From the IMG/VR virus record IMGVR_UViG_3300027506_000001, positions 1-41,668 of that record: 41,668 nucleotides of DNA; one strand, given 5' to 3'. The position numbers were made by a program, and so were the translations under genes. Position 1 is the first letter of the stretch. Each line of letters starts with the position of its first letter. The notes beneath the pieces were generated by a model. That model saw nothing but the letters and a program-made list of their open reading frames with translations. It ran no database searches and was not told the origin of the DNA. The stretch is from a virus. Lineage: Duplodnaviria; Caudoviricetes. This document shows positions 1 through 41,668 of this stretch, one piece after another.

Positions 1-99
1 TTTTTTCCTCAAGAGTTTATCGAAATTAGAATCAGAATTGTAAAGTATCTTTAAGAATTAAAAATACTTTACATCTTAATTTGAAAAAACAACACCAAG
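1..99. repeat. Terminal direct repeat (assembly overlap), identical to 41570-41668
   Basis: The first 99 nt (ttttttcctc...aacaccaag) are identical to the last 99 nt, as expected for a circular contig with a k-mer overlap. Confidence 0.95.
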
Positions 100-143
100 C
101 TAGACGCAGTAACTCAGTTATTAACGTCTAGCGTTTTTTTTTA
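87..143 (+). mobile_element. Degenerate attC-like site G upstream of thyA
   Basis: AAACAAC, then the gctagacg...cgtctagc hairpin, near-identical to the copies at 40914 and 41207. The right-hand GTTATTT core is replaced by a T run. Confidence 0.6.
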
Positions 144-6904: not shown

Positions 6905-6959
6905 AATGTTAAAAAAATAAAAGTCTTTTAGTTAAACAATACTGCAATTTATAACATAT

Positions 6960-7280
<321 letters not shown>

Positions 7281-7656
7281 ATTGAAAATAGATTCTTAGC
7301 TGAAATAATAACATATATACACTCTTCGCACTTAACACTAACAAAAATTGCTTATAATCGCTTAGAATCGCTTAGAATTGCAAATAAGACTATATTAATC
7401 CGATTTATTTTTTTTTGAAGTGATCTAATTAGTAGTTAATTAGTTGTCCCAAAATCCAAAGGGAATCTATTTTTTTAGGTTCCCTTTCCTTCTTTCTTTC
7501 TTCTTACAAATAAGATTCAGCTTATCTTCACAAAATTATTTAATTAATTTTAGTTCGTACTATTCGTACCTAGTACGAGCGATACGAATTTAATTTTTGT
7601 CACCATTTTTTCTTTTGAAAATAAGAAAGCACTAGTATTTTTATTTGAGTTTTTTC

Positions 7657-7860
7657 TGCCACGAATTTTGAAGAAAAAAAGCACGAATTTTCTGCCACGA
7701 ATTTTCTGCCACGAGTTTTTAGGCACGAATTTTTAGGCACGAATTTTTAAAATAGAAAAAATAGGCACGAGTTTTCTGCCATCAAAAAAATAGGCACGAA
7801 TTTTTAGTTACCATAAAATAGGCACGAATTTTCTAATATGAAAAAAAGCACGAATTTTCA
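7657..7860 (+). repeat. Array of 10 direct repeats (G/C)CACGA(A/G)TTTT
   Basis: CACG starts at 7660, 7682, 7696, 7710, 7724, 7738, 7766, 7795, 7823 and 7849. Two isolated copies lie at 5898 and 6229. Confidence 0.92.
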
Positions 7861-8066
7861 TATTAGAAAGGTCTATATATAGTAAAAATATCTATATATG
7901 GCTGTATAGATATTATAATATTTTTAAATATGTTTTTATTTGCATACGTTTTTTTTGGTGAATAATTACAAAGCTATATTAATATATTTGTAATAACAAA
8001 AAAAAAGAACTAAAAAATAAATATAAAAAAGTTATCCTAAAAATAGGAATATACAAAAATACTTTT

Positions 8067-10548: not shown

Positions 10549-10882
10549 GTAATAAAAGAGATAATAAAAGAGATAATAAAAGCGATCTAATTAATTTTAG
10601 GTTGCTTTTTTTTTGTCGTTTTATGTTTCTTTTGTTTAGTCCTGAATACTGAAATATATTTTTGCTTTATTACTTCGCTTTATTACTTCATTTTATTACT
10701 TCGCTTTATTACTTCGCTTTTCTTTTGTTCGCTTTTGTTCGCTTTTGTTCTTCGCTTTTATTTTCTTCGCTTTTCTTCGCTTTTATTGGTTCATTTTGTT
10801 CTGTTTTGGTTCATTTTGCGCAGATTTTAAAGAATTTAAGCCGTTTTAACTCGCTTTAGATCGTTATTACTTCGCTTTTCTT
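10549..10882. repeat. T-rich low-complexity tract with about ten TCGCTTT units, preceded by TAATAAAAG x3
   Basis: ttacttcgcttt and gttcgctttt repeats are directly visible. Confidence 0.85.
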
Positions 10883-28526: not shown

Positions 28527-31172
28527 ATGGCAGTAAAAGAATTTTATAAGTTTTATCTTAAAACAGATCAATCTATTTCAAATACAGTAAATGAAACCTT
28601 CCCTTTATCTGGTGCATCATTAACTCCTTCACCTTTTAGAAAAGGTTTTGGACAAGTTGTAGGTATTATAAATGCTTTTGATAAAGTAGATTTTTTTATT
28701 CAAGTTGATAATTTTTCACCGATAACTACACAATCAGTATTTTTTCAAGTAAGGGAAGAAAATTGCACAGGATTAAAATTAGCATCAAAATCAATTTCAT
28801 TTGAAACGTCAAACAATTTGGTTCCTATTTCTATTCATTTAGATGCTCCTGTTTTTTCAGAAAAACCATTATTTTTTTCAATTACTTGCACGACAGATAT
28901 ATACCCACATGGAAGGACACAAGCAAATAGTATTTTAACATCAACAACAGGTTCAATAGTTTCTTATGTATGTGATTCATTTTCTAGTAATTTGCAATAC
29001 TATTTTGCTTATTCATTAAATGATATAGTTGAATGTTATCCTAATTTTGGAAAGGGATTAGCTTTGCAACTAGAAAGAGAAACTGATAAGATTTTTTTAA
29101 GGAAGAAACTTAGTGGTAATTTTTTCTTTCAAAGAGATGATTATGATTTTGTTAGATTAGCAACAATAGAAGCTAGTTATACTTTAATTGTTATGTCCCA
29201 AATTAGCGGTGTTTTTTCAGAGTTTTACAGAGGGGAGTTTTCAAAAACAGATTGTTCATTTGATGATGATAATAAGATATTTTCAGTTTCACCTACACCA
29301 TTTGATAAGTATGCAAAGATACTAGCAGATATTGATAAAGAATTTGATATTATTGATTTAGGGATTAATAATACACCTGTACAATATGTAAAAAGACCGA
29401 TTTTTCAAGTAGTTACTTTAGGAACAGGAATTTTATCAAATCATATTGGAGGTTCTTTTTGGGAAGAAGAAATAAGCACAAGTCTTACAGGTAATGATTT
29501 AGTTAATACTTATGGATTTACAGCAGCAACAGAATTATATGGAGTATCAGGATATGGAGATGTTGATGTATCAGGTAAATATTTAGGTACTATTTCTACT
29601 GCTTCTTTTTTTCAAAGAGATGATAATGTCTATAAAATTGAAAAAAACTTTAATAGCAGTCAAATTGGTGAAAGTTTATTTGAAATAATAAGAGTATCAG
29701 ATAATGTTGTTTTATATGCTACATCTATTATTCAACTTGGAGATGAACCATTTACACCATTAAGTCAAAGAACTTTTTATGGTGTGGGTTCAATTAATGG
29801 TAAATTTAGTTTTTCTGTTTTTGCTCCATATACTAGAATATTAACAGATGTTCAAACTGTATCTGGATTTACAGTTATAAATATTCCTGATGTTGAAGAT
29901 GATATATTGCCATATAATTATAACTATAATTTTATTTTAACGGGTAATTATTTATCATTTGATATAACTTCTACATATACAAATACAGCTAATAAATATC
30001 CTGTTTCAATTGGATCCTATACTGATCCAAGTATAGATTTACCATTTTATCATATTCAACCTACACCACCACCACAAACTTATCCTACTTCTAAAAGTTC
30101 TTGGCATGGTTCAGCGTTTTGGTTATCATATACAGGTAATGCAATAGTTATAAATAATTTTGCAACAAAAGAGGTATTAAATAATTATTGCTATGAATTA
30201 AGTGATGTTATTGCAGGATTATTAAAAGAAATTGATCCTAGTTTAAGTTTTCAAAAAACAATAGGAACAAGTAATTTTTTACACAATGATACAGCAAATC
30301 CTGTTACAAGTGAATCAGGATTTAGATTATTTATTTCTCCCAAAACTAATGTAACTTCAAGTAAATATGATTTACCTGCATCAAAAGCAATAATAAAATT
30401 ATCTGAAATTTTTAATATGCTAAAGTATGGATTTAATTTAGATTGGTATATAAATGAAGGTGATGGAGGATTAAGAATAGAACATTCAGTTTATTTTGAA
30501 AATGGTAAAAATTATACTACTGAACAAATAGGATTAGATTTATCTTTGTTAAATGAAATATATACGGGAGTACCTTGGTCAACAGGATTTAATAAATTCA
30601 AATACAATAAATTTTCACTACCAGAAACGATTGAAAATAGTTGGATGGATGAAGTTTCTACTGTTTTTGAAGGTTACAAAATTGAAATAAAATCAAAATA
30701 TGTTACTAAAGGTCAAAATCAACAAAATTCATTATCTCCATTTACTTCTGATTTAGATTTTATGCAAACTTCACCAAGTAAAATTAATAAAAATGGTTTT
30801 GCTTTACTAGCTGCAAAAATTGATTTAAGCGATCTTATTTATAAAGTACCATTAATTGATATTGATATAAATGGTGTTACTGAAAGCATACAAAATGGTA
30901 ATGCTTCTTTAGTTTATATGCACGATAAATTTAAAAGACATTTATTACCTGCTAATCTAGTTAATTTGAATGGTGTAGATATAACAGCTATAAGTACAAT
31001 GCGATCTAAAGTACAAGAATTAGATACAGTTATTCCAGATGATTTTGATGAATTAAAGTTAATTAAAACAGATATAGGAAATGGTCAAATTGAGAAAGCA
31101 GAAATTTTATTAGAAACAGATGGAACAGGTAGAAGATCATTAAAAATAACAGTTAAATACGATACAGAATGA
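28527..31172 (+). CDS. Tail tip / minor tail protein
   Basis: 881 aa directly after the tape measure gene, with an LRIEH motif. Confidence 0.7.
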   Translation: MAVKEFYKFYLKTDQSISNTVNETFPLSGASLTPSPFRKGFGQVVGIINAFDKVDFFIQVDNFSPITTQSVFFQVREENCTGLKLASKSISFETSNNLVPISIHLDAPVFSEKPLFFSITCTTDIYPHGRTQANSILTSTTGSIVSYVCDSFSSNLQYYFAYSLNDIVECYPNFGKGLALQLERETDKIFLRKKLSGNFFFQRDDYDFVRLATIEASYTLIVMSQISGVFSEFYRGEFSKTDCSFDDDNKIFSVSPTPFDKYAKILADIDKEFDIIDLGINNTPVQYVKRPIFQVVTLGTGILSNHIGGSFWEEEISTSLTGNDLVNTYGFTAATELYGVSGYGDVDVSGKYLGTISTASFFQRDDNVYKIEKNFNSSQIGESLFEIIRVSDNVVLYATSIIQLGDEPFTPLSQRTFYGVGSINGKFSFSVFAPYTRILTDVQTVSGFTVINIPDVEDDILPYNYNYNFILTGNYLSFDITSTYTNTANKYPVSIGSYTDPSIDLPFYHIQPTPPPQTYPTSKSSWHGSAFWLSYTGNAIVINNFATKEVLNNYCYELSDVIAGLLKEIDPSLSFQKTIGTSNFLHNDTANPVTSESGFRLFISPKTNVTSSKYDLPASKAIIKLSEIFNMLKYGFNLDWYINEGDGGLRIEHSVYFENGKNYTTEQIGLDLSLLNEIYTGVPWSTGFNKFKYNKFSLPETIENSWMDEVSTVFEGYKIEIKSKYVTKGQNQQNSLSPFTSDLDFMQTSPSKINKNGFALLAAKIDLSDLIYKVPLIDIDINGVTESIQNGNASLVYMHDKFKRHLLPANLVNLNGVDITAISTMRSKVQELDTVIPDDFDELKLIKTDIGNGQIEKAEILLETDGTGRRSLKITVKYDTE

Positions 31173-32005
31173 GTTTAAAAAATTATTCACTATTACCTTT
31201 TTATGATTTAGCAAGTAAGCAGCATAGGTCATTATGGTATTCATTTGATAGAGTTTTCCCTATGCCTGTATTAGAAGGTTTTATTCCTCCTTTTCAATGG
31301 GATAAGTTTATTAATGTTGGGGAAAATATATCTACTTTTAAGATAAGAAACTTGCTAACTTCAACAGAGTATGATATTACTATTGCAATGCAATCAGGTG
31401 GACTAGTATTATCACAAGAAACAGGTTTTGATAAAATTACTTGGGATGGTTTAACTAGAATAGATAATCCTGATGGATTAAATGTTGTAGATGGTAGAGC
31501 CATTTTTGATAATGGTGATTATGAAGCACTTTTTAATTTAGGAGGTCAAAGACCTTATATATCAGAACCTTTTAGATTTGTTTCTGATATAGATTGTTTT
31601 TTAAAGATTGAATGGTATCACGATGAAAATTTTGAATATCCAAATGCTTTTATAAAATATACAACAGGTTTTAAGAATTTTGCTTATTTTCCTACTGAAT
31701 TTAGTAAACCTAGTTATCCATTTGAAAGAGAAGTATCTGAAAGACAAGGAAGGGTATATCCTAGAATACAAACAGTAGGTAAAACTCATAGGTGCAATGT
31801 ACTTGTTCCAGAATGGTTAGCAGATGTATTAATTTTGATACCTTTGCACCATTACGTAAAAATTACATATCAAGGAACTACTTATGATGTGAATGAAATT
31901 TTGGTAAGTGAACCAGAATGGCTAGAAAGAGGTGATTTAGGAACTATGGAATTAGAAGTAACTTTTGATAATTCAGTAGTAAAAACAGGAAAAGCTAAAC
32001 TTTAA
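31169..32005 (+). CDS. Minor tail protein
   Basis: ATGA overlap with the upstream tail gene, 278 aa. Confidence 0.6.
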   Translation: MSLKNYSLLPFYDLASKQHRSLWYSFDRVFPMPVLEGFIPPFQWDKFINVGENISTFKIRNLLTSTEYDITIAMQSGGLVLSQETGFDKITWDGLTRIDNPDGLNVVDGRAIFDNGDYEALFNLGGQRPYISEPFRFVSDIDCFLKIEWYHDENFEYPNAFIKYTTGFKNFAYFPTEFSKPSYPFEREVSERQGRVYPRIQTVGKTHRCNVLVPEWLADVLILIPLHHYVKITYQGTTYDVNEILVSEPEWLERGDLGTMELEVTFDNSVVKTGKAKL

Positions 32006-32039
32006 AATATTTATTTAATAATCAAAAAACATATATAAA

Positions 32040-32588
32040 ATGAAAAAGTATTTATTTTTATTTTTCTCTTTGTTTATTTTTTCAAATGCTATTGCACAAG
32101 AAGTAGAAACAGTAGAGTTAAAAGATACAGTAGAATCACTTACCATAACTTTAGCTGATGGGAAAAAATTTACTATTGATGGTGTAAAATCAAATAATGA
32201 TTTAAAAGAATTAGGTGAAATTTTATCTGCAAGAAAAGATGAATTAGAAGTAGTTTTAGAAGGAACCGAATTTCCACCAAAAGGAGTTCAAGGATGGCTT
32301 ACCTTATTATTATCATTATTAGCTTCTGGATTTTTAAATAAAATTATTGTATCAGGAACTAGAGCAATAAAACTAATCAAAAATATATTTGATGGCACTA
32401 GTACAAATGCAATTGTTTGGGGATCAGCAATGGCAATTGGGTTTTTAATTTCTTTTTGGCAAGTAAATTGGAATATATCTAATATTGATTTTGCAAATTG
32501 GGCAAGTATGACATTATTTGTTTCAGTTTTTTCAATGTTTGTGCATGAATCAATAAACAAAGTATCAAAAAAGAAAGAAGTTGAATAA
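32040..32588 (+). CDS. Membrane protein with a signal peptide and about 3 C-terminal TM segments
   Basis: MKKYLFLFFSLFIFSNAIA|Q. Hydrophobic segments WLTLLLSLLASGFL, AIVWGSAMAIGFLISFW and WASMTLFVSVFSMFV. Confidence 0.7.
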   Translation: MKKYLFLFFSLFIFSNAIAQEVETVELKDTVESLTITLADGKKFTIDGVKSNNDLKELGEILSARKDELEVVLEGTEFPPKGVQGWLTLLLSLLASGFLNKIIVSGTRAIKLIKNIFDGTSTNAIVWGSAMAIGFLISFWQVNWNISNIDFANWASMTLFVSVFSMFVHESINKVSKKKEVE

Positions 32589-32609
32589 TAACTAAAATCA
32601 TATTATTTT

Positions 32610-32647
32610 AAAAAACCTTTCTATAAAAATGTAGAAAGGTTTTTTTT
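32610..32647 (+). terminator. Terminator at the end of the structural operon
   Basis: aaaaaacctttcta...tagaaaggtttttttt. Confidence 0.75.
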
Positions 32648-32673
32648 ATTTTGAATTGTAATATATTTTACCC

Positions 32674-32681
32674 TATATTTG
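32674..32681 (+). promoter_or_regulatory. TAnnTTTG promoter element
   Basis: TATATTTG with an upstream TTTG, before the ATG at 32705. Confidence 0.6.
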
Positions 32682-32704
32682 TACCAACAAAATAACAATA
32701 TATT

Positions 32705-35751: not shown

Positions 35752-37611
35752 ATGAGTAATTATTCAAAAGGATTTGAAAAACTAGGTGTTGATTTAAGAA
35801 GTGTTAGGGGAAATGCGTCTATTTGTCCTTCTTGCAGCCATACAAGGAAGAAAAGCAAAGAAAGATGTATGAGTATCAATTTAGAATCAGGGTTCTATAA
35901 ATGTAACCATTGCGATTTTGCAGGTAGAGTAGATAGTAATGATTGGATTAGTAAAACATATTATTCTGATAACAATGTAAAATCTAATTCACTAAAAATT
36001 AACAAAAGTAAAACTTATGCTAATCCAAATAATAGTTTTCAAAAACTAAGTACCAATTCATTAGAGTTTTTAAAATCAAGAGGTATAACAGAACAAGTTG
36101 CAATAAGAAATAGAATTGGAGAGAATAAGAATGGTGATATTGCTTTTACTTACTATAATGATAAATCCTTAATTGCTTGTAAATTTAGGAAAGTTAGTGG
36201 CAAGTCATTTTATCAAATTCCTAATTGCAAACCAATTCTATACAAACTAAATGATATAAAAAAAATACCTTATGCAATTATATGTGAAGGTGAACTTGAT
36301 GCTTTAAGTTGGGAAGTTCTTGGATTAACAGGTGCAGTATCAATTGATAAAGGTGCGCCAAATAAAGGAGGTAAAATTGGAACAAAGTTAGATTGCCTAA
36401 GAACTTGTTATAACTTTTTAAAAGATAAGGAGGATATATATATATCAGTAGATAATGATGAAAATGGTAATTATCTAAAAGAAATTTTAATTAATAGGTT
36501 TGGTAGGGATAAGTGTTTTATTATTTCATATCCAGATGATTGTAAGGATGCAAATGATGTTTTAATTAAATATGGAATAGTTGGATTAGAAAAATGTTTT
36601 AATAATTGTAAAAAGGTTCCTGTTTCAGATATTCAAAAAGCAGAAGATGTATATGATGAAATTTTGGAAGATTTTGAAAATGGATATGATAAAGGTGAAC
36701 CATGTGGATTTGAAGCTATTGAAAGTGGATTCTCGTGGATAAAGCATTTTGTTTATTTATGGACAGGAATACCCAATCATGGAAAATCTGCTTTTGTTAG
36801 TTTCTTAATGATGTTAAAAAGCATAAATTCAAATACAAAATGGGCAATATTTTCACCAGAACACGCACCTGCAAAGGTTTTTTATAAAAATATGATTAGT
36901 TTATTTACGGGAAAAAGTCTTGATAAAAATAGTGCTAATGCCATTACTAGGGAAGAAATTATTTTATGTAAAAATTTTATAAGTGATAATTTTATTTTTA
37001 TATATCCAGAGGAACTTAATATTTCTACTGAAAATGATGCTATGCAAACTCCAAAATGGATATTAGATAAAATATCAGAATTAGCATTATGCGAGGGAAT
37101 AGGTGGTTTTCTTATTGATCCTTGGAACCAATTGGATCACATATACAAAGATATAAAAAGGGAAGATCAATATTTATCGCATTGGTTAAAGCAATTTAAA
37201 AAAGTATCACAAATGCACAATTTGTTTTGTAATATAGTTGTTCACCCAAAAAAGATGAATCCTGATATGCAAGGTATAGTTAGAAAACCTACTGCATACG
37301 ATATAAGTGGTGGTGCCATGTGGAGCAATAAAGCAGATGTAATTACAGTAATACACCGAGATAAGTTTTATACTGATAAAATGGATAATAGTGTTTTTGT
37401 TGATGTGCAAAAAGCAAAGGAACAGCATCGTTTTGGACAACCAAGATGTAATACTGTATTTTTTGAAGCATTGACAGGATGGTATAAAGGTGAATTTGGT
37501 AGTTCTCCAATGGAAGGAATATTTGAAAAAATGAAAAAATCTATAAATGGAGAAGAAATTGATCCAATTAAATCAGCTAGACCAAATAATTTAGAAGAAA
37601 TACCATTTTAA
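35752..37611 (+). CDS. Primase-helicase (T7 gp4/Twinkle-like)
   Basis: Zn finger CPSC...CNHC, TOPRIM CEGELDAL/DND/KDAND, Walker A TGIPNHGKS, LIDPWN, VVHPKK and YDISGG. Confidence 0.92.
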   Translation: MSNYSKGFEKLGVDLRSVRGNASICPSCSHTRKKSKERCMSINLESGFYKCNHCDFAGRVDSNDWISKTYYSDNNVKSNSLKINKSKTYANPNNSFQKLSTNSLEFLKSRGITEQVAIRNRIGENKNGDIAFTYYNDKSLIACKFRKVSGKSFYQIPNCKPILYKLNDIKKIPYAIICEGELDALSWEVLGLTGAVSIDKGAPNKGGKIGTKLDCLRTCYNFLKDKEDIYISVDNDENGNYLKEILINRFGRDKCFIISYPDDCKDANDVLIKYGIVGLEKCFNNCKKVPVSDIQKAEDVYDEILEDFENGYDKGEPCGFEAIESGFSWIKHFVYLWTGIPNHGKSAFVSFLMMLKSINSNTKWAIFSPEHAPAKVFYKNMISLFTGKSLDKNSANAITREEIILCKNFISDNFIFIYPEELNISTENDAMQTPKWILDKISELALCEGIGGFLIDPWNQLDHIYKDIKREDQYLSHWLKQFKKVSQMHNLFCNIVVHPKKMNPDMQGIVRKPTAYDISGGAMWSNKADVITVIHRDKFYTDKMDNSVFVDVQKAKEQHRFGQPRCNTVFFEALTGWYKGEFGSSPMEGIFEKMKKSINGEEIDPIKSARPNNLEEIPF

Positions 37612-37613
37612 TT

Positions 37614-37775
37614 ATGAAAAATTACGAAATTGAAAGGATTGAAAGGATGATTAGAGTATTAGAATTATTTATAAGTAAAGGCAAAAAAGGTAAACTAAAA
37701 AAATACTCAATTACAGAAGAAAAAGAAACTTTAAAAAAAATAGATCATTTAAAAAATCAAATAAATAATAAATAA
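37614..37775 (+). CDS. Small hypothetical protein, 53 aa (not in ORF track)
   Basis: Manual translation MKNYEIERIERMIRVLELFISKGKKG..., with a TAATG overlap to the next gene. Confidence 0.55.
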   Translation: MKNYEIERIERMIRVLELFISKGKKGKLKKYSITEEKETLKKIDHLKNQINNK

Positions 37776-38467
37776 TGAATTTAGTAAAACTAGTTTTAAT
37801 TCTTCTAACTTTTATTAGCTTAATCTTTTACAATTATAATTATTACGAAAAATTAAATTGTTCTTCTGCTGATATAGAATCAACTAGAGTAAGTCAAATT
37901 ATATTAGATAATATTGAATATAGAAAGATTATCAATGATAAAAATAATATAATTAAACTAGCAAATTTTAAAAAAATTAAAAAGATTCACCAGAGAAAGT
38001 CATTAAACAGAAAAAGAAAGTTTGCTTTAGAATATGGTAAATTTGCAATTGAAAGTGAAAAGATAAGTAATATACCTGCATCAATTATATTAGGTCAAGC
38101 AATTTTAGAAAGTGATGCAGGAGAATCAGAAATTGCAAAAAACGTAAACAATTTTTTTGGGCATAAATGCGGTAAAAATTTATGTAATCATAAAACTAAA
38201 TGCAAAAAATTTAAAACAACGGAACAAGATAAAGAAGGTAACATCATAAATAAATATGATTATTTTAGAGTATATGAAAACCCATATAACTGTTTTATAA
38301 GTCATGGTTTCTTCCTTAATAAAAAAAGGTATAAAAAAAGATGGGAGAAAATTAACAACAACAAAGACTATAAAAAATGGTCATCAGCAATAAAAAAAGG
38401 TGGTTACGCAACCGATATAAAATATACTCAAAAATTAATTAATTGTATTGAAAAATATGTTTTATGA
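37775..38467 (+). CDS. GH73 glucosaminidase (FlgJ-like) peptidoglycan hydrolase with an N-terminal TM
   Basis: QAILES, NNFFGHK, FRVYE and GGYATD..Y motifs. Confidence 0.88.
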   Translation: MNLVKLVLILLTFISLIFYNYNYYEKLNCSSADIESTRVSQIILDNIEYRKIINDKNNIIKLANFKKIKKIHQRKSLNRKRKFALEYGKFAIESEKISNIPASIILGQAILESDAGESEIAKNVNNFFGHKCGKNLCNHKTKCKKFKTTEQDKEGNIINKYDYFRVYENPYNCFISHGFFLNKKRYKKRWEKINNNKDYKKWSSAIKKGGYATDIKYTQKLINCIEKYVL

Positions 38468-38531
38468 TTTTTAACTTAATAATTGTAATCGGTTTATGTT
38501 TTATTTTGTCAGATAATAAAATTAATCCAGA

Positions 38532-38957
38532 ATGAAATTAGATTTTAATATATCAGAATTTGTTATTAGAGGTGCTATTGTGCCATCTTATATTGCAGAT
38601 AAAATATTGCATTATCATATTTTACCTATGCAAAAAGTAAGAGATATTATTGATATACCAATTTTTGCATCTCAAAGAAGTGGATATAGACCTGTTTCAT
38701 GGGAATTATCAAGAGGTAGAAAAGGTAATAGTCAACATACTTTTAAAGGTAAAGGTGCAGTAGATTGGACTTGTAAAAACTTTGTAGAAAACCAATATGA
38801 ATTTTTAAAATTAATTATTGAATATACTGATTATAAAAGAATTGCAGTATATAAATCATTTATCCATTGTGATTACAAGGAAACAAAAAATGGTAAAAGG
38901 CAATTATACAAATCAGGTGCAGATTCCAAATGGGTATTGATAAAAAATATAAATTGA
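38532..38957 (+). CDS. Peptidase M15A-type endolysin
   Basis: SGYRP, SQHTFKGKGAVD and FIHCD zinc-ligand motifs. Confidence 0.85.
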   Translation: MKLDFNISEFVIRGAIVPSYIADKILHYHILPMQKVRDIIDIPIFASQRSGYRPVSWELSRGRKGNSQHTFKGKGAVDWTCKNFVENQYEFLKLIIEYTDYKRIAVYKSFIHCDYKETKNGKRQLYKSGADSKWVLIKNIN

Positions 38958-39304
38958 GAGAATATAAATTAACTTATAAAGGTAAACTAATATCAACTAA
39001 TTCAGCTAAGAGTTTACATTGGAGAGCATTAAGATCAAAAGTATTAAAATTAGAAGTTGAATTTCTATCCATAATTTTAAAATCTAATCTACCAAAATTT
39101 AATAAATTTGAAGTTGATGTACAATATTGGAATAGGTTTGATTGTGATAATGTTGTTTTTTCTGTAAAAGTAATGATAGATCAACTTAATAGGCAAGGTA
39201 AATTTATAGATGATGATAAAAGATACTGGAAGAAATTAACTATAACTGCAAATGAAGAACTAGAAAATAATACTATTATTTTTAAGATTATAGAAATTAA
39301 ATAA
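38930..39304 (+). CDS. RusA-like Holliday junction resolvase
   Basis: STN, RFDCDN.....K...D and IDDD motifs. Confidence 0.7.
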   Translation: MGIDKKYKLREYKLTYKGKLISTNSAKSLHWRALRSKVLKLEVEFLSIILKSNLPKFNKFEVDVQYWNRFDCDNVVFSVKVMIDQLNRQGKFIDDDKRYWKKLTITANEELENNTIIFKIIEIK

Positions 39305-39324
39305 TACTTCTTTTAATTTTGATT

Positions 39325-39364
39325 AACCCAAAAAGCTATTTTAGTTTTTAGGGTTTTTGTTTTT
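39325..39364 (+). terminator. Terminator insulating the cassette array
   Basis: aacccaaaaagcta...tagtttttagggtt followed by a T-rich run. Confidence 0.55.
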
Positions 39365-39384
39365 AATAAATAGTTGTATATTTG
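39356..39384 (+). promoter_or_regulatory. Promoter at the head of the cassette array (Pc-like position)
   Basis: TTTG (39356) and TATATTTG (39377-39384), 17 nt upstream of the first attC-like site. Confidence 0.55.
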
Positions 39385-39401
39385 TAGGTGTATAAAGTTA
39401 T

Positions 39402-39457
39402 TTATAACGGACGTGGCTATGCGCTTGTACTTGTATGGCGTATAGGTGTTGTTGTGC
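39402..39457 (+). mobile_element. attC-like site A
   Basis: TTATAAC, ctatgcgc/gcgtatag stem, GTTGTGC. Confidence 0.7.
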
Positions 39458-39534
39458 TTATGTTCTTTTGCGGTTATGTAAAAATATATTTACTTTTATT
39501 TGGTAGATTGTAAATTTATGTTTACATTTGAATC

Positions 39535-39747
39535 ATGAAAGCAATTATAAAATATAAAAACGGTTGGATTTTAGAAATACCAACAATAGGAACTGCACCA
39601 ATGTTATTATTGGAATGGGTTTCAGAATTTAGAATGGGTAAAATGCCTATTGATAAAGTAATTAATACCGACAATTTTCACATTAGGTTTAATATTCCTA
39701 AAGCAGAAATTGAAAAGTGTGCTGAATACATAAACGCAAATTTATGA
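39535..39747 (+). CDS. Cassette 1 ORF a, hypothetical
   Basis: 70 aa, with its own TACATTTG element at 39523 just before the ATG. Confidence 0.65.
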   Translation: MKAIIKYKNGWILEIPTIGTAPMLLLEWVSEFRMGKMPIDKVINTDNFHIRFNIPKAEIEKCAEYINANL

Positions 39748-39923
39748 ATTGGCATAAAAGATACAAAGCAATGAAATTGGGGTTAGGATTGACTAACTCC
39801 GACATTGCTGATATAACAGGCAATAGTGCTGATTCTGTTAAATCAGTCACTCAACCAAATAAAGATATACCACGTTGGCTTAAACTTGCTATTGTTGTTT
39901 ATGAACGGATGCAAGCAAAATAA
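39744..39923 (+). CDS. Cassette 1 ORF b, HTH-like protein, 59 aa (not in ORF track)
   Basis: MNWHKRYKAMKLGLGLTNSDIADITGNSADSVKSVTQPNKDIPRWLKLAIVVYERMQAK, with an ATGA overlap to ORF a. Confidence 0.7.
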   Translation: MNWHKRYKAMKLGLGLTNSDIADITGNSADSVKSVTQPNKDIPRWLKLAIVVYERMQAK

Positions 39924-39927
39924 TTAA

Positions 39928-40058
39928 GCACAACTTTAAAGGCTATGCGTAGTTGCGTAGATAATAACTAAATAATACAGAAATGAAAATTAATACAGGA
40001 CAAACTATTAGACGATTAAAAGCAGAAAATAAGCAATTACGTATAGGTATTGTTAGCC
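39928..40058 (+). mobile_element. attC-like site B (long loop containing a translation start)
   Basis: GCACAAC, ctatgcgtagttgc (39943) / gcaattacgtatag (40033) stem, GTTAGCC. Confidence 0.72.
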
Positions 40059-40162
40059 AACAACGTGAACTGTTACAATGCTTTTGCAAATTAGCCAACA
40101 TAACACACGATACAGTTGATAAAGATATTGAAGATACGATATACAGATTTAACGCATTGTAA
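39983..40162 (+). CDS. 59-aa ORF spanning the site B crossover point (not in ORF track)
   Basis: MKINTGQTIRRLKAENKQLRIGI|VSQQRELLQCFCKLANITHDTVDKDIEDTIYRFNAL. The GTT core at 40052 is the Val codon. Confidence 0.65.
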   Translation: MKINTGQTIRRLKAENKQLRIGIVSQQRELLQCFCKLANITHDTVDKDIEDTIYRFNAL

Positions 40163-40166
40163 TTGT

Positions 40167-40205
40167 GGCTGACGATAGGAAGCTGACGTATAGGTGTTGT
40201 TAGGC
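40167..40205 (+). mobile_element. Truncated attC-like site C
   Basis: GGCTGAC...cgtataggtgttGTTAGGC. The right arm is identical to site A and the left stem arm is missing. Confidence 0.55.
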
Positions 40206-40241
40206 TTAGTACGATTTAATAATAACTAAAATAATTTAAAG

Positions 40242-40487
40242 ATGAAAATGTATAAAACAGGTGGTTGGAGAGAACTAATTGAAGTAGTAGAACCAACAAA
40301 AGTAACAGAAAAAAGTGTGTGGTTAGCAAACGGAAGAAGTGCTAAAAGAAGTAATTACGGAAATTACTGGGATACATTAGAAGAAGCAAAAGAACACCTT
40401 ACGGAAAAGTATAATAGAATGATAGAATCTTCTGAACGTAAAATAGAAAAGGCAAAAGCTGATTTAGAAGCACTAAGTAAGTATTAA
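40242..40487 (+). CDS. Cassette 3 hypothetical protein
   Basis: 81 aa. The stop codon abuts the site D left core. Confidence 0.75.
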   Translation: MKMYKTGGWRELIEVVEPTKVTEKSVWLANGRSAKRSNYGNYWDTLEEAKEHLTEKYNRMIESSERKIEKAKADLEALSKY

Positions 40488-40553
40488 GCCTAATGGTTTT
40501 GTATGCGCAGTAGATGCGCATAGTATCTATTGCCGTCATACACTTTGTTCGAC
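40488..40553 (+). mobile_element. attC-like site D
   Basis: GCCTAAT, tgtatg/cataca and gcagtagatgc/gtatctattgc stems, GTTCGAC. Confidence 0.7.
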
Positions 40554-40591
40554 ACAGGCTTTTTATTTTTTAATCTTTTAATCTTCCAATC

Positions 40592-40870
40592 ATGGACATA
40601 GATAAACTTATTAATGAAGAAAAGAAAAGGCACAATTCAAATATGTCTTTCCTTAAAAGACAAAAAACAATTTTTGAAAAAAGTAAATTAAGAACAGATA
40701 AAGAACGTGCTGTTTTGATGTACAAAAGACTATTTAAAGAAAACAATAAATTGTTTCAAGAACTTTTATTCAAAGCAAAAAATAATATTGTTTCACCACA
40801 TGATTATATTCATTCTAATATGATTCTTGAATCGGAAAGGCAATTGAAAGAAGAATGTAAAATTCTTTAA
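40592..40870 (+). CDS. Cassette 4 hypothetical protein
   Basis: 92-aa ORF inside the inverted ends gttcgacacaggc/gcttgtgtcgaac. Confidence 0.7.
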   Translation: MDIDKLINEEKKRHNSNMSFLKRQKTIFEKSKLRTDKERAVLMYKRLFKENNKLFQELLFKAKNNIVSPHDYIHSNMILESERQLKEECKIL

Positions 40871-40913
40871 TTTTTTTATCGGCACAATGTTTTGATTTTT
40901 TTTCATTGCTTGT

Positions 40914-40970
40914 GTCGAACGCAAAGCTAGACGTAGTAACTTAGTTATTAACGTCTAGCGTTTGTTATTT
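40914..40970 (+). mobile_element. attC-like site E
   Basis: GTCGAAC, gctagacgt/acgtctagc stem, GTTATTT. Confidence 0.72.
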
Positions 40971-40987
40971 AAAAACAAAACTTAAAT

Positions 40988-41200
40988 ATGGAACGAGAAA
41001 AAATAGATTTTACAGACAAAGAACTTTATTATGTAGCACTTGCCTTTGAGAGCCACTTAAATAGTAGAGATACTTGGATAAGTAAAGAAGGTGCAAAAGT
41101 GATAAATAACGCTATTAAAAAGATAACCGAAAATGGATTAAAAAGGAAGAACCCTAAATCTATTTTACACCCAATATACCAATTTGAAAGCGAAGATTAG
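40988..41200 (+). CDS. Cassette 5 hypothetical protein
   Basis: 70-aa ORF between sites E and F. Confidence 0.7.
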   Translation: MEREKIDFTDKELYYVALAFESHLNSRDTWISKEGAKVINNAIKKITENGLKRKNPKSILHPIYQFESED

Positions 41201-41206
41201 TATTAC

Positions 41207-41263
41207 TTATAACATCAAGCTAGACGTAGTAATTTAGTTATTAACGTCTAGCATTTGTTATTT
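41207..41263 (+). mobile_element. attC-like site F
   Basis: TTATAAC, gctagacgt/acgtctagc stem, GTTATTT. Confidence 0.72.
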
Positions 41264-41281
41264 AAAAACAAAACTTTTAAT

Positions 41282-41623
41282 ATGGATAAACAATATCAAA
41301 ACTTGTTAAAAGACATTATCGAAAACGGAGAAAAAAAATTTAAAATAGAAAGAACAGGTATTTATGATTTGATTTTTCGTGCAAAATGTACAAAAGAGGA
41401 TTTACATGAATGCTTAAAATATATTGATGCAAATGATAATTATAGAACACCACTTGAGTTGAATGTAGATGGTGTATTATTTAAGTTGGGTAAAAATGGA
41501 TTATCAGGGAGAGTTTTTCTTTATAGAAAGGAGGAAAATGAATGGAATATGAAACAATCTAATAGAAGTTTTTTTCCTCAAGAGTTTATCGAAATTAGAA
41601 TCAGAATTGTAAAGTATCTTTAA
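41282..41623 (+). CDS. Chimeric ORF: ThyA-like N-terminal 19 aa fused to an unrelated sequence
   Basis: MDKQYQNLLKDIIENGEKK versus Thy[20 protein letters not shown]. The ATG at 41282 is preferred. Confidence 0.7.
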   Translation: MDKQYQNLLKDIIENGEKKFKIERTGIYDLIFRAKCTKEDLHECLKYIDANDNYRTPLELNVDGVLFKLGKNGLSGRVFLYRKEENEWNMKQSNRSFFPQEFIEIRIRIVKYL

Positions 41624-41668
41624 GAATTAAAAATACTTTACATCTTAATTTGAAAAAACAACACCAAG
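41570..41668. repeat. Terminal direct repeat, identical to 1-99
   Basis: Direct sequence identity. Confidence 0.95.

Follow-up and report, generated by a model that had tools for sequence, protein, structure and literature searches.

A phage array of hairpin sites and small genes that behaves as an integron cassette array but is not a canonical one

The stretch of DNA considered here (the window) is the whole of IMG/VR record IMGVR_UViG_3300027506_000001, 41,668 nt, a phage genome that is complete and circular and whose ends overlap by 99 bp. Between a RusA-like gene on one side and a thymidylate synthase gene on the other it carries an array of hairpin sites and small open reading frames (ORFs), which a preliminary description had taken for an integron-like cassette array. 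The circular join was borne out: two other records run through it with the same sequence. The portal is ~40% identical to portals of Croceibacter, Bacteroides and Flavobacterium phages, the named hosts among the portal matches shown are Bacteroidota throughout, and the array occurs in sequencing runs from marine, seawater, sediment or viral metagenomes; an RNA run, which shows neither strand nor level, was left aside. The parts of the array, all on the + strand, are as follows.

39377..39384, +: TAnnTTTG promoter-like motif at the left array end
39406..39453, +: site A, a hairpin of the form AAC-N9-TA...TA-N6-GTT; the + strand is its putative bottom strand
39408..39933, +: cassette 1, hairpin A plus segment; end match 8/11
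39535-39747 and 39744-39923, +: ORFs of cassette 1, the latter helix-turn-helix (HTH)-like; internal TAnnTTTG at 39523
39932..40054, +: site B, 123 nt long; its stem has 14 pairs and its loop a start codon (from folding)
39983..40162, +: 59-aa ORF starting within hairpin B, with GTT read as Val; V-S-Q-Q-R-E-L family
40167..40201, +: remnant of site C, AAC core gone
40199..40493, +: segment of cassette 3, with ORF 40242-40487; end match 10/11
40492..40549, +: site D, a hairpin with core AAT (from folding and end alignment)
40494..40919, +: cassette 4, hairpin D plus segment with ORF 40592-40870; end match 9/11; moves from core D to core E
40918..40966, +: site E, first of three near-identical hairpin copies, E, F and G (from the repeat family and folding)
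40920..41212, +: unit 5, hairpin E plus ORF 40988-41200, without the end signature
41211..41259, +: site F, hairpin (from folding)
41282..41623, +: ORF 41282; its opening ~35 codons duplicate the beginning of the thymidylate synthase gene
41660..41668, +: left arm of site G, the terminal site, which runs on over the circular join
91..139, +: site G in the start copy of the 99-bp overlap, with TTT in place of GTT; leads into the thymidylate synthase gene, 161-946

The preliminary description had quoted eight end sequences, by which four segments begin with the reverse complement of their own end. All eight are present where they were placed, and the cognate ends match beyond the core at 8, 6, 10 and 9 of 11 positions for A-B, B-C, C-D and D-E, respectively. 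In a matrix of ends the cognate match was the row maximum for each of these four segments, and when the six segment ends were permuted the observed sum was reached in 2/720 cases. The two flanks of the same site match at 2.6/8 positions on average; the complementarity is between cassette ends (4/6 window segments). The matrix and the permutation test replaced a generic chain statistic on end complementarity that was too permissive, giving long chains everywhere; the stricter setting alone beat the null (a chain of 4 in 5/500 null runs).

The hairpins were confirmed in part. Sites D, E and F beat shuffled sequences on the + strand (z of -2.8, -3.8 and -4.9), while site A was weaker (z -1.7). 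Site B, earlier drawn as a short hairpin at 39928, is in fact the 123-nt structure listed above, its loop holding the ATG of ORF 39983; its whole-site folding z is ~0. Site C, earlier read as an AAC mutated to GAC, is instead a deletion remnant: the intact hairpin occurs in 6 other viral contigs (of 7 found), and the left arm in the window was lost between two GGCT repeats. A difference in core-to-stem spacing ('8/5 vs 5/4') claimed among the sites disappeared once they were anchored on the TA pair, where one pattern, AAC-N7..9-TA ... TA-N6-GTT, holds for the window.

The array head had been likened to an integron cassette promoter (Pc). A TAnnTTTG motif does stand at 39377, but its 97 occurrences compare with 84 +/- 8 expected, so that its frequency is not above chance. 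Besides, the head promoter is not a Pc equivalent because the attI-like site described below lies at the right end in integrase-bearing phages, the left end being the far end of the array. The terminator reported at the head can be made out by eye, although a terminator scan did not call it.

The absence of a recognisable integrase stood up to further searches. The best E-value of a six-frame profile search of the window was 0.21, and no tyrosine recombinase was found by PHROGs (56 ORFs) or by tblastn with two related integrases; nor was an attI-like site recognisable in the window. None of the seven array ORFs matched a Pfam family. PHROGs matched only ORF 39744 (an unknown family) and the thyA-like start of ORF 41282, and PADLOC returned a weak 15-bit match for ORF 40592 and nothing else in the array. 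BLAST of the array against plasmids gave chance matches only, and a search for relatives through the RusA-like gene or the C-D segment brought back the same virus alone. The two genes at 39454-39931 (a small protein and the HTH-like protein), with their own Bacteroidota-type promoter motif, recall by eye a toxin-antitoxin or regulator pair; similar units are present in two other loci, L024 and L036.

Sites of this kind form a large family. Motif scans of viral contigs yielded 12, 17, 80 and 94 loci. With a strand-symmetric parser, which tolerates wobble on either strand (113 loci), we found 316 hairpins in chains in gene orientation and 33 in reverse, and none in the 37 kb of the window body. 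A larger set comprised 209 loci in 117 clusters, with 177 unique hairpins; the loci were selected by motif, and the counts are not a prevalence. The 177 phage hairpins fit AAC-N6..9-TA ... TA-N6-GTT, 154 of them with N8 or N9, and 170 carry an exact AAC. Arrays with three or more sites were present in 36/117 dereplicated viral locus clusters.

The stems are strongly skewed between strands: on the gene strand the 177 hairpins have 330 G-T pairs versus 29 C-A. G-T is fixed at two stem positions, and several others show four or more pair types. Because the count of pair types is shaped by the parser, we also swapped arms between hairpins. Cognate arms outscored swapped ones, with 43/67 cognate arm pairs scoring >=10 compared to 77/670 swapped pairs (the right arm being fixed by sequence alone), so that the stems covary. 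The R-box consensus of attC sites was largely absent, RYYYAAC being present in 10/177 hairpins and GTTRRRY in 14/177. When one bulge was allowed within 14 pairs, none was called in 110 sites, 50 had it on the AAC arm and 17 on the opposite arm; a bulge on the AAC arm is on the arm opposite to that of the canonical extrahelical bases.

Two loci deserve a separate description. Phage P12002L (L057) has two arrays of this site family, at 29200-32700 and 37250-40850, with several sites around DNA methyltransferase genes and at least nine sites by parser, more by eye. In L024, a hairpin at 7200-7995 has by eye a ~780-nt loop enclosing two whole ORFs. Below 3420 in the same locus, on the opposite strand and directly after a GTT core, lies what by eye we take to be a type I restriction-modification specificity-like gene; it is possibly a host-type cassette or host flank.

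Comparison with relatives revealed where units are exchanged. A strain 99.8% identical to the window over 37807-39400 parts from it 5 nt ahead of the A core; the genes it has beyond that point are different, and the two sequences meet again at the AAC of an E/G-type hairpin. In a further strain, a C-D-type end is joined directly to an E/G-type hairpin, and the segment of cassette 3 occurs elsewhere behind an E-type hairpin. The D-E unit in other samples spans 40491/2 to 40920 with several different left neighbours, and a relative's contig departs from unit 5 at the AAC of F. The segment after site B was seen in 71 distinct contexts, and to the right of its closing AAC there is mostly a different hairpin. 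One short hairpin, probably the end site of related arrays, has a constant right flank and 11 different left flanks.

Apparent joints leading from 41664/5 back to E or F came from repeat mapping of G and are not rearrangements. In a strain of this phage (L276, 1595-2970), the place of the array is taken by an ORF matching SspD (PADLOC, E 6e-9) and a second ORF; an E/G-type hairpin sits in the apparent start of a third gene there.

Cultured Polaribacter phages provided the clearest cases. The ten Freya isolates (L036, L330, L334-L336 and L328-L329) range from 43,978 to 48,920 bp, and those mapped differ by gain, loss or replacement of cassettes at exact AAC cores beside an integrase gene. Compared with Freya_9, Freya_10 has one more unit of 307 bp, which extends from AAC to AAC, begins with a B-type hairpin and is situated at an attI-like site beside the integrase. 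In Freya_5, _6 and _9, exact AAC joins were found at 4/4 internal junctions mapped, Freya_6 having a different unit. Relatives thus do show cassette gain, loss and replacement at a core, as had been proposed, but mainly at the AAC of the + strand rather than at GTT. A main crossover at + strand G|TT was rejected in view of the diversity of left flanks and the Freya AAC joins. The polarity assumed before was the wrong way round: exchange takes place mostly at AA|C of the + strand, which is G|TT of the - strand, and a hairpin thus forms a unit with its right-hand segment.

A scan of host genomes with the motif gave 20 matches, of which 7 were left aside and 3 Bacteroidota matches turned out to be in coding DNA and due to chance. 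Host locus L052 encodes a 398-aa tyrosine recombinase, followed by an attI-like site and by cassettes in canonical order with six hairpins (parser). Genes of host cassettes are on the C-A strand (on the gene strand, C-A 13 and G-T 0). Segment ORFs are on the G-T (bottom) strand in 69/74 phage cases and on the opposite strand in 5/5 host cases. The top strand of attC carries C-A mismatches (PMC5027507), as the host gene strand does here; therefore the + strand of the window corresponds to the bottom strand, and the phage genes run backwards. Since the genes of phages follow the bottom strand, each has its hairpin upstream, where it can provide the ribosome site and the N-terminus.

A relative of the host integrase was detected in 80/151 sampled genomes of class Bacteroidia (the unpublished genome G118 counts within the 80; its locus, L157, was excluded from all other analyses). 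An attI-like motif follows the integrase in 22/30 host loci versus 0/5 Xer-like controls and, in a second test, in 15/20 host loci versus 28/680 control windows. The phage integrases are shorter versions located at the right end of the array; the reverse complement of the motif stands ahead of 9/9 of them, three of which are near-identical, and of 1/2 further ones. The array-adjacent integrases have archaeal XerA and IntI4 as best matches, are without ~43 residues of the IntI4 catalytic domain, and score 194 and 97 bits where the TIGR02249 cut-off is 265. The IntI-specific domain is what defines IntI (PMC9668308). In the phages Ingeline_8 and Leef_1 (L331, L332), a gene of this family annotated as 'integrase' comes after the array end and may serve the cassettes and not lysogeny. 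Integrases were present in 0/25 and 1/40 array-bearing viral records, the one being the query's own; 7 and 22 of these records, respectively, were >=90% complete.

The array thus behaves as an integron cassette array, yet it is not a canonical one, as it departs from the canon in four defining features. We conclude with good confidence that it consists of mobile cassettes without an integrase of their own, and that these belong to an integron-like system found in Bacteroidota and their phages. The unit of that system is a hairpin with the segment on its right, exchanged at AAC, likely by an IntI-like tyrosine recombinase from the host or a co-infecting phage. The conclusion is built on what was demonstrated above, namely the end signature, the AAC exchange in relatives, the strand asymmetry, the reversed direction of phage genes, and the integrase with its attI-like motif in hosts and some phages. 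It agrees with the earlier proposals of integron-like cassettes, folded single-strand sites and a distinct site family. Supply of the recombinase in trans, also proposed before, is the simplest reading of the integrase-less viral records; the enzyme must come from elsewhere, but it is likely not a canonical IntI. A relative without the IntI insertion, with predicted activity and tied to the sites by neighbourhood, is the likely enzyme.

In the proposed mechanism, the + strand would fold and be cut between A and C, like the bottom strand of attC. The unit would circularise, its two ends extending the stem, and the circle would be reinserted at an attI-like or hairpin site. More tentatively, the other strand might sometimes be used, so that a hairpin would be joined to a new segment at GTT, producing in-frame chimeric proteins. 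No circle junctions of the window cassettes were seen among assembled contigs.

Several observations weigh against this interpretation. Of 118 distinct ends of shared blocks, AAC accounts for 27 and GTT for 14, and the other 77 are away from both cores; the enrichment at cores is only two- to threefold because the single-sequence chance is 12% for AAC and 4.6% for GTT. (These are strict classes; earlier loose breakpoint classes were noisy, with a chance of 43% for the AAC motif.) A global-alignment linkage test had too little to work with, 10 segment pairs and no hairpin pair. Two rearrangements in the window, the deletion in site C and the fusion of ORF 41282 to unrelated sequence near 41330-41339, are away from cores, and segments E-F and F-G have end matches of 4/11 and 5/11 and no signature. 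Many of the viral records searched are fragments. The integrase is tied to the hairpin sites by gene neighbourhood; under a strict cassette walk no more than 4/18 host loci had a hairpin (null 2/200), and parser chains were present in 3/20 host loci on the expected strand and in 2/20 on the other. Similar integrases also adjoin IS91 transposases: in L333 (5923-7946) and in Clostridium plasmids, related insertion-less integrases lie beside transposases of the IS91 family, and the enzyme family is therefore not confined to arrays.

The second core, GTT, is the subject of a more ambitious reading. Among the 76 hairpins of at least 160 nt, 47 start a loop ORF that crosses GTT as a Val codon; the same count gave 2 and 8 in the other frames and, antisense, 3 and 1 of 125. 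The VSQQREL family, which includes window ORF 39983, has 73 distinct ORFs, 72 of them with an in-frame ATG upstream of the joint. Near-identical C-halves stand behind unrelated N-halves in L089/L101, L086/L099/L112, P12002L/L102 and phi13:2/L107 and, conversely, N-halves are shared with unrelated C-halves in L059/L113 and L058/L071. In seven shared hairpins similarity ends at GTT or a few bases from it, and what follows is unrelated; all pairs are from different clusters, and one of the hairpins is 99% identical over 223 nt. A minority of joins is likely at GTT, fitting chimeric proteins.

From these data one could construct a two-core integron-like system of Bacteroidota phages that assembles proteins combinatorially, with loops as N-halves, segments as C-halves and GTT as a fixed Val joint, served by an integrase that, lacking the strand-selecting IntI domain, acts on both strands. 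We put this somewhat short of an even chance. In canonical attC, loss of extrahelical bases relaxes the choice of strand (PMC5027507). The present sites are mostly without such bases, which would therefore offer a possible mechanism for the use of both strands. A join at GTT could also be how new cassettes are made; independent creation of cassettes sharing one hairpin would look the same. Furthermore, 24 nt are shared at the starts of VSQQREL segments, and the half swaps could arise there by homology.

Homology is also the basis of the main rival to the cassette interpretation as a whole, in which the phage's exonuclease and annealing proteins recombine repeated hairpins by homology or microhomology, in the manner of the promoter-stem-loop (PeSL) elements and without any site-specific enzyme. 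The phage does encode a RecE/YqaJ-like exonuclease and a single-stranded DNA-binding protein (SSB); E, F and G are hairpin-plus-leader copies of one kind, 74-82% identical over 76 nt; site C arose via a 4-nt repeat; the majority of block ends is off-core; most array-bearing phages are without an integrase; crossovers are possible in the 24 nt just mentioned; and PeSL elements of T4-type phages set a precedent (PMC2839356). Still, we judge this explanation improbable. The joins are at a 3-nt core with unrelated flanks, every Freya join uses the site beside the integrase, and the self-complementary segment ends and the fixed strand skew would serve no purpose.

The PeSL comparison itself is instructive. 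Arbiol et al. (2010) described, as here, repeated stem-loops between small accessory genes, modular shuffling and circles (PMC2839356). Those elements recombine between similar repeats, whereas here a 3-nt core lies between unrelated flanks and relatives have an integrase and a docking site. The promoter-like matches in our case are at chance level and the joins are at cores; the E/F/G repeats could still recombine by homology.

Poorer still are the prospects of the array being an ordinary cluster of attC sites lacking integrases (CALIN), with canonical attC sites and a canonical IntI of the host. The AAC/GTT cores, the longer spacer on the R' side and the G-T skew do match attC (PMC5027507), and IntI1 recombined one site of P12002L (PMC9892861). 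This working site, attC2, is, however, the array-end site read in the other direction, and the typical P12002L site, attC1, gave no verified IntI1 recombinant (PMC9892861). The rarity of the R-box consensus, the bulges that are mostly absent or on the wrong arm, and the scores of the neighbouring integrases below the TIGR02249 cut-off all oppose it.

Least probable is a primary role of the hairpins as RNA elements (terminators, processing or translation signals) with exchange secondary: the phage message strand is the G-T-rich one, so that G-U pairs would form, the hairpins precede start codons and one terminator-like call overlaps D, yet the G-T strand of hosts is antisense to genes, so the skew tracks attI polarity and not transcription, Rfam had 0 matches at the gathering score in the window and in 7 related loci, and exact AAC joins remain unexplained. 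A secondary RNA role alongside recombination is possible.

As an integron-like system, the array and its relatives share with integrons the AAC/GTT cores, a hairpin with one better-folding strand and self-complementary cassette ends (PMC5027507), as well as a site next to a tyrosine recombinase gene where cassettes are gained and lost and, presumably, a bottom-strand AA|C crossover. They differ from integrons in that the integrase is without the IntI insertion, the RYYYAAC consensus is missing and most sites have no canonical extrahelical bases. In hosts the integrase points the same way as the array, whereas the genes of phages are antisense to the canonical polarity, and loops carry start codons.

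A close precedent is the CALIN reported by Qi et al. (2023) in the virulent Polaribacter phage P12002L, where two sites were treated as ordinary attC and attC2 was recombined with IntI1 (PMC9892861). It is likewise an integrase-less hairpin array in a flavobacterial phage, its attC1 belongs to the same site family in the same strand orientation, and we found that P12002L carries a VSQQREL-type cassette. A cognate integrase, reversed polarity or coding loops are not named in the available portions of that report (PMC9892861). Synthetic attC sites placed in coding sequence (Nivina et al., 2020) are also recombination hairpins that encode protein, proposed for module shuffling (PMC7439510); those were engineered and driven by IntI1, whereas the present hairpins are natural and code for N-termini in one fixed frame. 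Smyshlyaev et al. (2021) defined an 'Integron-like' subgroup of simple tyrosine recombinases and held the insertion essential for integron function; as far as its accessible text goes, that study linked no insertion-less member to cassette arrays (PMC8138268). In the literature at title and abstract level, with subscription journals mostly outside the scope, we found no description of the site family, its integrase or the coding loops.

Integrons are counted as rare in Bacteroidota (PMC9024848), and their detection depends on the IntI-specific domain and attC models (PMC9668308). If our interpretation is true, a large cassette system common to Bacteroidota and their phages has been missed, recombination of single-strand hairpins does not require the IntI insertion, and phages can borrow the machinery. 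The cultured Freya phages, with their exact gains and losses, make a ready experimental system. Joining at the second core is relevant to the origin of cassettes, and it would amount to a shuffling of protein modules in nature.

Elsewhere in the window, a 48-nt leader is repeated ahead of three early ORFs (8311, 8614 and 9449), a second kind of modular repeat without AAC/GTT cores. A long poly-A-rich stretch of low complexity at 6920-7300 is possibly an assembly artefact or a replication origin. Short tandem repeats at 7682-7832 (a 14-nt unit with CACGA) and 10661-10810 (10-13-nt TTCGCTTT units) are situated around the early gene block.

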